Part shown: piece after piece, positions 26,734 through 28,117 of the stretch
Layout of the letters: each line of letters begins with the position of its first letter
Position numbering within the stretch: the stretch's first letter is position 1
Assembly (NCBI GenBank): GCA_964016885.1
Contig: OZ024741.1
Coordinates: 289,230,001-289,294,000, forward strand
From: Eledone cirrhosa
Lineage: Eukaryota
Length of the DNA stretch: 64,000 nt
Reading direction: 5' to 3'
Program-made: the position numbers and the translations under genes
Notes under the pieces: model-generated
Database searches by the model: none
Told to the model about the DNA's origin: nothing
Seen by the model: only the letters and a program-made list of their open reading frames with translations

Positions 26734-27302
26734 GTGTGTGTCTGATGGTAGCTATGATGCTTGCACAGGCGGTATGCCGGTTGAGCACTCTATGTTCTTA
26801 CAGAGCAGAGTGTGATATAATATATATTATATATATATGTATATATATATATATAAGTATGTATACCTGCATACATATATTTATACAGACGTACAGTAGT
26901 ATGTGTATATATACATACATGCACACATATATATGTACGTATGAACAAAAGAGCAACGATGGTTCGGCTTAATTCGGGATGTTTGTTTAGAAACAAACCG
27001 AACATTATAATAAATGTTTGGTAAATCCATACGTACATATATATATGTGTGCATGTATGTATATATATATACATACTACTGTACGTCTGTATACATATAT
27101 GTATGTACGTATACATACTTATATTTAAGTAACAGCCGTACTAAGAGTGAGAAATGAAATTTCGTTTCATTTTTTCCATTTATTGTTTTCGGTGCGCCCG
27201 ACCGATTAACTCACTCGATATGAAAATTAGGCTGCTCAGCCGTTAATATGCATAAGGAAAGTATATACTTTCAGACGTTCAATCATCTGGCAGGAAGGTA
27301 TG

Positions 27303-27343
27303 CGGTGCTGACGATAGCTAATAAGCTTGAAACTAGTACATCG
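27303..27343 (+). ncRNA. Type I hammerhead ribozyme (predicted GUA cleavage after 27338)
   Basis: CGGTG-CTGACGA-T AGCT AATA AGCT T-GAA-ACTAGT-A-CATCG; stem I can extend via AGGAA/TTCCT. Confidence 0.88.
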
Positions 27344-27730
27344 TTCCTTTGTCAGTGTTGAACAAAAGGGCAACGTTGATTGCTAAACACTGTACTGCTT
27401 AATTCTGGATGTTTATTTACAAACAAACCGAGCATTATAATAAATGTTCGGTAAATCCATACGTACATATATATATGTGTGCATGTATGTATATATATAC
27501 ATACTACTGTACGTCTGTATACATATATGTATGTACATATACATACTTATATTTAAGTAACATCCGTACTAAGAGTGAGAAATAAAATTTCGTTTCATTT
27601 TTTCCATTTATCGTTTTCGGTGCGCCCGGCCGATTAACTCACTCGATATGCAAATTAGGCTGCTCAGCCGTTAATATGCATAAGGAAAGTATATACTTTC
27701 AGACGTTCAATCATCTGACAGGAAGGTATA

Positions 27731-27771
27731 CGGTGCTGACGATAGCTAATAAGCTTGAAACTAGTACATCG
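27731..27771 (+). ncRNA. Type I hammerhead ribozyme (predicted cleavage after 27766)
   Basis: Identical to 27303-27343. Confidence 0.88.
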
Positions 27772-28117
27772 TTCCTTTGTCAGTGTTGAACAAAAGGGCA
27801 ACGATGGTTGCTAAACACTGTACGGCTTAATTCGGGATGTTTGTTTACAAACAAACCGAGCATTATAATAAATGTTCGGTAAATCCACACGTACATATAT
27901 ATATGTGTGCATGAATGTATATATATATACATACTACTGTACGTCTGTATACATATATGTATGTACGTATACATACTTATATTTAAGTAACAGCCGTACT
28001 AAGAGTGAGAAATGAAATTTCGTTTCATTTTTTCCATTTATATATATATATATATTAGAAAGTGAGGTTTTTTTTACAAAATGAAAAATAACCGAAGTGT
28101 CCTACACGAGTCAAAGT

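Follow-up and report, generated by a model that had tools for sequence, protein, structure and literature searches.

The closest described systems are the non-LTR retrozymes of corals, mussels and the axolotl (Cervera and de la Pena 2020, PMC7229834). In the available text of that paper, they are tandem non-coding units of 150-450 bp with a GC content below 50%, a type I hammerhead ribozyme (HHR) and a self-paired monomer, and their expression, cleavage and circles have been shown. Vertebrate retrozymes, described as non-autonomous derivatives of Penelope-like elements (PLEs), occur as monomers, dimers and multimers together with abundant PLEs, which likely mobilise them, and in the accessible part of the report this link is drawn from pLTR homology and co-occurrence (Li, Clavereau, Pollet 2026, 10.64898/2026.07.22.740005). 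The accessible sections of a 2020 review state that animal retrozymes show no motif indicating a helper (PMC7761336). The route by which animal retrozymes return into DNA has so far been proposed, not shown. As for PLEs, an insertion of an EN+ element combines, in the available description, a copy that bears a tail at one of its ends with a second copy, truncated and inverted (Craig et al. 2021, PMC8557442). According to the part of the Poseidon PLE study that is available, both DNA strands are cut and extended in vitro, and the tail is the stretch between two internal reverse transcriptase (RT) start sites (Frangieh et al. 2024, PMC11167929).

The locus described here lies in a 64-kb stretch of Eledone cirrhosa DNA, hereafter the window, and belongs to a family with a 428-nt unit. 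Short tandem units with a type I HHR, non-coding sequence, a GC content below 50% and a self-paired monomer identify the family, at the level of sequence, as a non-LTR retrozyme that carries a PLE footprint, not as an autonomous PLE. In contrast to the coral, mussel and axolotl retrozymes, the 428-nt family is known from DNA alone; its two-site tail and its inverted arms in (TA)n are absent from the descriptions in the available text of PMC7229834. It resembles the vertebrate retrozymes in the co-occurrence of abundant PLEs, in the presence of monomers, dimers and multimers and in its likely mobilisation by PLEs, but the link to PLEs comes here from insertion anatomy, and no homologous pLTR was found among 89 stretches from four PLE families. 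Compared with EN+ PLEs as described in the available sources, it shares the two fixed internal ends, the one-arm tail, the inverted truncated copy, the AT-rich targets and an HHR upstream of the start sites; unlike them, it has no ORF, a full bulged stem I and head-to-tail units without coding sequence, and its tail is 55 nt long as against 30-40 nt.

We regard the locus as one aged insertion of a high-copy hammerhead repeat, likely written by a PLE into (TA)n and probably copied from a 428-nt circle, with a probability of about 0.58. That the family is a PLE-mobilised retrozyme can be stated with high confidence. The initial annotation had proposed a retrozyme family with a PLE helper, and the dispersed, multimeric, non-coding copies, the covarying HHR helices and the Penelope insertion footprint support this. 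The retrozyme class, dimeric cleavage and the PLE footprint have all been published already. A literature search that left most subscription journals and supplements outside its scope found no cephalopod retrozyme and no two-site retrozyme footprint.

Anatomy of the locus and size of the family

The locus consists of a two-hammerhead array and an inverted arm, with (TA)n on both flanks (Table 1; monomer position 1 is 27339). TRF places a tandem repeat of period 428 at 26965-28041, with about 2.5-2.6 copies and 95% matches. The tandem 428-bp units with a type I HHR, the insertion into (TA)n with an inverted piece and the lack of a real ORF had all been claimed before and are confirmed; the longest stop-to-stop frame overlapping the region has 116 aa and is of low complexity. 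The two HHRs, one at each junction between units, had also been called identical, which is true of their cores but not of positions 27290/27718 and of the bulge at 27302/27730. The inverted and direct arms overlap by 2 nt (TG). The locus is an aged copy, with units that diverge from each other by 2.6-4.3%, and its four pieces have no rare alleles in common.

Table 1. Features of the locus and of its full monomer, in window positions
Feature	Position	Strand	Basis or remark
(TA)n target, left flank	26815..26850	.	sequence and TRF
Inverted arm, monomer ~120-217	26851..26943 (also read as 26848-26941)	-	outer end is start site 1, ...CTTATAT then (AT)n
First unit, 5'-truncated, monomer ~21-428	26942..27338	+	13-nt deletion near start
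Type I hammerhead 1	27292..27348	+	core 27308-27338; predicted cut after 27338
Full 428-nt monomer between two predicted cut sites	27339..27766	+	34.6% GC; highly self-paired
Long TA-rich hairpin, monomer 125-198	27463..27536	+	predicted fold
Predicted multiloop with GAGTGA/TCACTC closing stem, holding a terminal hairpin and start site 2	27573..27644	+	fold prediction
ATGCAAAT	27648..27655	+	inside 12-nt block identical in 466-nt sister family; strand of predicted hairpin
Type I hammerhead 2	27720..27776	+	core 27736-27766; predicted cut after 27766
Incomplete final unit, monomer 1-272	27767..28040	+	ends at start site 2, ...CCATTTA then TATATA
Tail of 55 nt that separates the two start sites	27986..28040	+	one arm only
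(TA)n target, right flank	28041..28056	.	sequence

A loose HHR core pattern has three matches in the window, compared with none in 100 shuffles; the third, at 18724-18754, belongs to another copy of the family. This copy is a second two-armed insertion at 18507-19067, about 90% identical, with one arm ending at site 1 and the other at site 2 and with a single HHR whose helix III palindrome is broken. Two small fold-back pairs, at 6070-6190 and at about 8833/8995, contain hammerhead-like motifs of other families, and the former sits between (TA)n tracts.

The 428-nt family is dispersed and multi-copy and ranges from monomers to multimers. The suggested genome-wide copy-number check returned 9,489 copies of an exact 33-nt HHR core in the 3.0-Gb genome (control 0), in agreement with a family of dispersed multimeric copies. 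A search with the monomer gave 2,224 candidates, and among the 40 that were scored the full-length matches are 90-96% identical. A looser HHR descriptor has 53,881 matches genome-wide (control 0) and spans at least two sister families, one with a unit of about 310 nt (L059, L086, L189-L202) and one with a unit of 466 nt (L071, L183, L301). The 466-nt unit aligns to the 428-nt unit over its whole length at about 65-68%, and their independently predicted folds match helix for helix. The 310/311-nt family is young and forms two-armed arrays of identical units (L059:500-2990; L189-L202), in which a distance of about 30 nt separates the two fixed ends.

The hammerhead ribozyme and the monomer fold

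The HHR has the elements of a type I hammerhead core, namely CUGANGA (here CTGACGA), GAAA, a NUH site and helices I-III. Stem I is formed by CGGTG/CATCG, a 6-nt bulge and an AGGAA/TTCCT extension, stem II starts with T-T at its base and continues as AGCT(AATA)AGCT, and helix III can be read as GAAA-CTAG-TA, that is, one pair and a palindromic tetraloop. The pair 10.1-11.1 is accordingly a U-U mismatch at the base of helix II, which is absent from the earlier description. This HHR joins two weakening features, a weak helix III and the U-U mismatch. Helix III resembles that of the axolotl HHR_Amex1 and the U-U mismatch that of HHR_Amex2; the axolotl retrozyme HHRs have, in the available text, either a weak helix III with a palindromic tetraloop or U-U and cleave better as dimers (PMC7229834). 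The ribozyme described here has both features. The minimum-energy fold of the isolated HHR is a non-active form (z -1.6), whereas stem I does form in the predicted fold of the whole monomer, and an intermolecular duplex of -6.8 kcal/mol is computed for the helix III palindrome. Because the isolated HHR is non-active at minimum energy and the weak-helix axolotl HHRs work better as dimers, self-cleavage after 27338 and 27766 is a prediction here.

The helices of the HHR covary within the 428-nt family and across its two sister families, in a small number of independent events. The one variable pair of stem I, 395/3, keeps its pairing in 95% of 118 copies (T-G 91, G-T 14, A-T 5), compared with 68% expected if the two positions were independent. 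Among 10 distinct sequences from the three families, 93% of 115 helix cells pair, the sole unpaired cells being U-U, and both sides have changed in 8 of 12 helix pairs; the changes go back to few independent events, and the same sequences served to derive the structure. Within these limits, the ribozyme structure is under selection. Helix III, the middle of which was left free in the descriptor, is palindromic (CTAG, CGCG or CATG) in all 100 of the 53,881 matches that were listed, many of these 100 coming from few arrays.

Excess conservation of the HHR core had also been anticipated, and the result supports it in part. In a sample of 192 pieces from 90 loci, selected without regard to the core, none of the 32 core sites has a minor allele at 10% or more, compared with 18 of 108 and 11 of 101 sites in two flanking regions; low variation is nevertheless not unique to the core, as two other regions have only 2 of 93 and 0 of 18 polymorphic sites. 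The suggested Infernal search went against the annotation, as the Rfam hammerhead models give no match either at the gathering score or at E<=10. Rfam matches to miRNA families all lie below the gathering score and correspond to the TA-rich hairpin.

The 428-nt monomer is self-paired in its predicted fold (z -5.4), partly owing to the TA hairpin. Unit joints are precise, and the predicted closing stem pairs across them. The multiloop predicted around start site 2 has the same layout in the predicted fold of the 466-nt sister family. Next to it, the block TATGCAAATTAG (27647-27658) is identical between the 428-nt and 466-nt families and could be a promoter element or merely a piece of a conserved hairpin. 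The motif ATGCAAAT within it can be labelled an octamer; an octamer promoter as in newt satellite 2 was rejected, since the element is missing from the 310-nt family and no supporting text was found. A Pol III model based on T6 near site 2 was also dropped because the sister families contain internal T4-T5 runs.

Insertion footprint and candidate helper

The initial annotation took the unit to be bounded by two hammerheads. Insertions do not end at the cleavage site but at monomer 217 (site 1) and 272 (site 2), fixed positions inside the unit with 55 nt between them, one for each of two back-to-back arms. It is these internal start sites, rather than ribozyme cleavage, that define the unit of insertion. 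Site 2 has 2,989 exact junctions genome-wide (control 0) and site 1 has 3,021 (control 75). The first 90 site-2 junctions on contig 1 were taken as a sample, biased toward well-kept site-2 ends, and each arm was traced upstream. An inverted arm is adjacent in 52 of the 90, and 46 of these 52 inverted arms end at monomer 211-221, 40 of them exactly at 217. Site-2 arms range from 38 to more than 2,000 nt, and 40 of the 90 are longer than one unit. The insertions thus combine two fixed 3' ends that differ by a tail, variable 5' truncation and an inverted copy, as PLE insertions do, and the locus in Table 1 fits the same pattern.

One sample has a cluster of 5' ends at monomer 121-160, inside the TA-rich part of the unit (8 compared with 1.8 expected), likely through annealing to the (TA)n target. 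A further start site near monomer 381 was discarded, with only 6 ends compared with 4.4 expected.

PLE frames are common near retrozyme loci, and their abundant copies are 5'-truncated. One family has DKT and CxCX5C motifs and open frames of 821 aa and, by these motifs and not by a tree, would belong to the Hydra clade, whose members insert into (TA)n according to the available text of Craig et al. (PMC8557442). Among 30 copies, this Hydra-type PLE ends in (TA)n at a first site in 16 and at a second site in 12; the first end reads CTTATAT, as does retrozyme site 1, and the second follows a tail of about 85-90 nt. Its start region is predicted to form a multiloop loosely like that of the retrozyme, in a fold prediction made without statistics. 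Among 89 stretches from four PLE families, in a genome that holds many more, no PLE end homologous to the 428-nt unit was found; the matches that did occur are neighbouring retrozyme copies or short chance matches. Because no homologous end was found, the helper is what we infer, and the chances that it belongs to the Hydra clade are about even. No ORF with RT and GIY-YIG, the mark of an autonomous PLE, was noticed at this locus, in the 90 traced arms or among the matches listed for 60 further 8-kb loci, and among eight PLE frames Pfam recognised one weak RT match only.

Young PLEs with long open frames are very abundant in two families (L295-L300, L211-L270), the Hydra-like one and a second with frames of more than 1,000 aa, and each carries its own minimal HHR. 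The Zn-finger linker of the second is Neptune-like.

The copied RNA and the rival readings

The predicted cut site is passed by 58 of the 62 site-2 arms that reach 250 nt, with 4 stops near it compared with 5.1 expected, which indicates that the copied RNA was continuous there, being a circle or an uncut multimer. The inverted arms pass it in 40 of 46 cases, and at least 202 of 213 cut-site junctions lack an indel. The read-through and the indel-free junctions together show that the template was not a cut linear monomer, and they make template jumping unlikely.

Units and arms of one insertion belong to one sequence type. Where an insertion measures 1.5 kb or less, its tandem units agree at diagnostic sites in 788 of 864 comparisons (91%) and its opposite arms in 1,008 of 1,066 (95%), while different insertions agree in 55%. 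Private alleles are common to tandem units (11/162) and to opposite arms (12/216) at an equal rate. All 12 units in the two arms of a young 311-nt sister array are identical, and this array differs from another one in two places. This agreement favours one monomer read repeatedly, and a circle was, somewhat more likely than not, the main template. The argument from homogeneous arrays is weakened by a 30-unit array of the 466-nt family (L301-L302), in which variants recur every three units or so, a sign of local higher-order duplication; together with the L055 array, which alternates two unit types, it indicates that arrays can also grow by local duplication.

An apparent signal of one full turn, with 19 arms ending at 392-452 nt compared with 6.3 expected, was discounted because this length range was picked post hoc, the accumulation of site-1 arms follows position and not length, and an HHR-anchored sample has no clear excess. 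As for marks of RNA editing, A>G changes are not in excess in the 428-nt family when read on the HHR strand (167 compared with 140 singletons, 24 compared with 21 shared), which counts against the circle, as does the lack of rare alleles common to the four pieces of this locus. Family-wide, non-CpG singletons are strand-biased on the HHR strand, with G>A 308 compared with C>T 169 (p 0.0003) and, as a second bias, T>G 96 compared with A>C 62.

In the reading that we favour, copies with two HHRs would be transcribed, and the palindrome of helix III would let the two HHRs associate and cleave as a dimer, freeing monomer 1-428, which a host ligase would close; we infer such release and circularisation of the 428-nt monomer. 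A PLE protein, likely of the Hydra clade, would bind the multiloop around monomer 235-306, nick both (TA)n strands and prime at monomer 217 on one strand and at 272 on the other. Copying would extend over a variable distance in each arm, often more than a full turn, and both cDNAs would become joined head to head.

The same PLE insertion could have used a linear multimer, uncut and transcribed off master arrays of homogeneous units, with an HHR that cuts rarely or late or only trims the 5' end. Cut-site read-through is no proof of a circle because the Poseidon PLE mainly uses uncut RNA in vitro, where, in the available text, its own HHR is dispensable and HHR mutants still insert (PMC11167929). 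Long homogeneous arrays capable of local growth are present, helices II and III are weak in the 428-nt family, and eight of nine Xenopus retrozyme dimers that were assayed did not cleave, as given in the accessible part of that report (10.64898/2026.07.22.740005). However, such a template would need a homogeneous master for each subfamily, and if the linear source were heterogeneous, sharing between arms should be mostly in register, whereas private alleles are as often common to tandem units as to opposite arms. Moreover, helices I and II and the palindrome have been kept through sequence turnover in three families, and circles have been shown for the coral, mussel and axolotl retrozymes, according to the available text (PMC7229834). 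We therefore treat the uncut multimer as a possible but doubtful template.

If the units were only the truncated ends (pLTRs) of a yet-unfound autonomous PLE, with tandem units formed by later local duplication and no independent non-autonomous RNA, the insertion footprint would be identical, PLE copies are indeed 5'-truncated and very abundant, and the inspection covered four PLE families. This is nevertheless improbable, since past monomer 273 the 90 upstream-traced arms enter the next unit or stop, and no shared upstream ORF was noticed in them or among the matches listed for 60 further 8-kb loci. The precise unit joints with the predicted stem across them, and a full bulged stem I unlike the minimal HHRs of the PLEs seen in the genome, also speak against it. 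Still less credible is a satellite or a DNA-level mobile repeat with an incidental hammerhead-like motif, for which the missing Rfam hammerhead match and the local tandem growth could be cited: fixed 3' ends, together with inverted arms and 5' ends that vary, bear the mark of retrotransposition, the descriptor has its 53,881 matches against none in the control, and the HHR helices show compensatory changes.

Of the circular template with a PLE helper, a more specific version is tentative at best: a Hydra-clade enzyme would have copied one ribozyme-made circle repeatedly, with one start site per strand, and the circle would recruit the enzyme by mimicking the fold of its binding site rather than through sequence in common, and may hold its own promoter. 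With exactly placed start sites, a target, a binding fold from prediction and candidate helpers that have long frames, the ideas of a PLE helper and of a circular template become directly testable in vitro. The 428-nt family thereby offers unusually clear insertion evidence for PLE mobilisation of a retrozyme, and if the circle-copying and fold-mimicry reading is true, its superfamily of about 54,000 ribozyme motifs would rank with the heaviest known loads of retrozymes in invertebrates.
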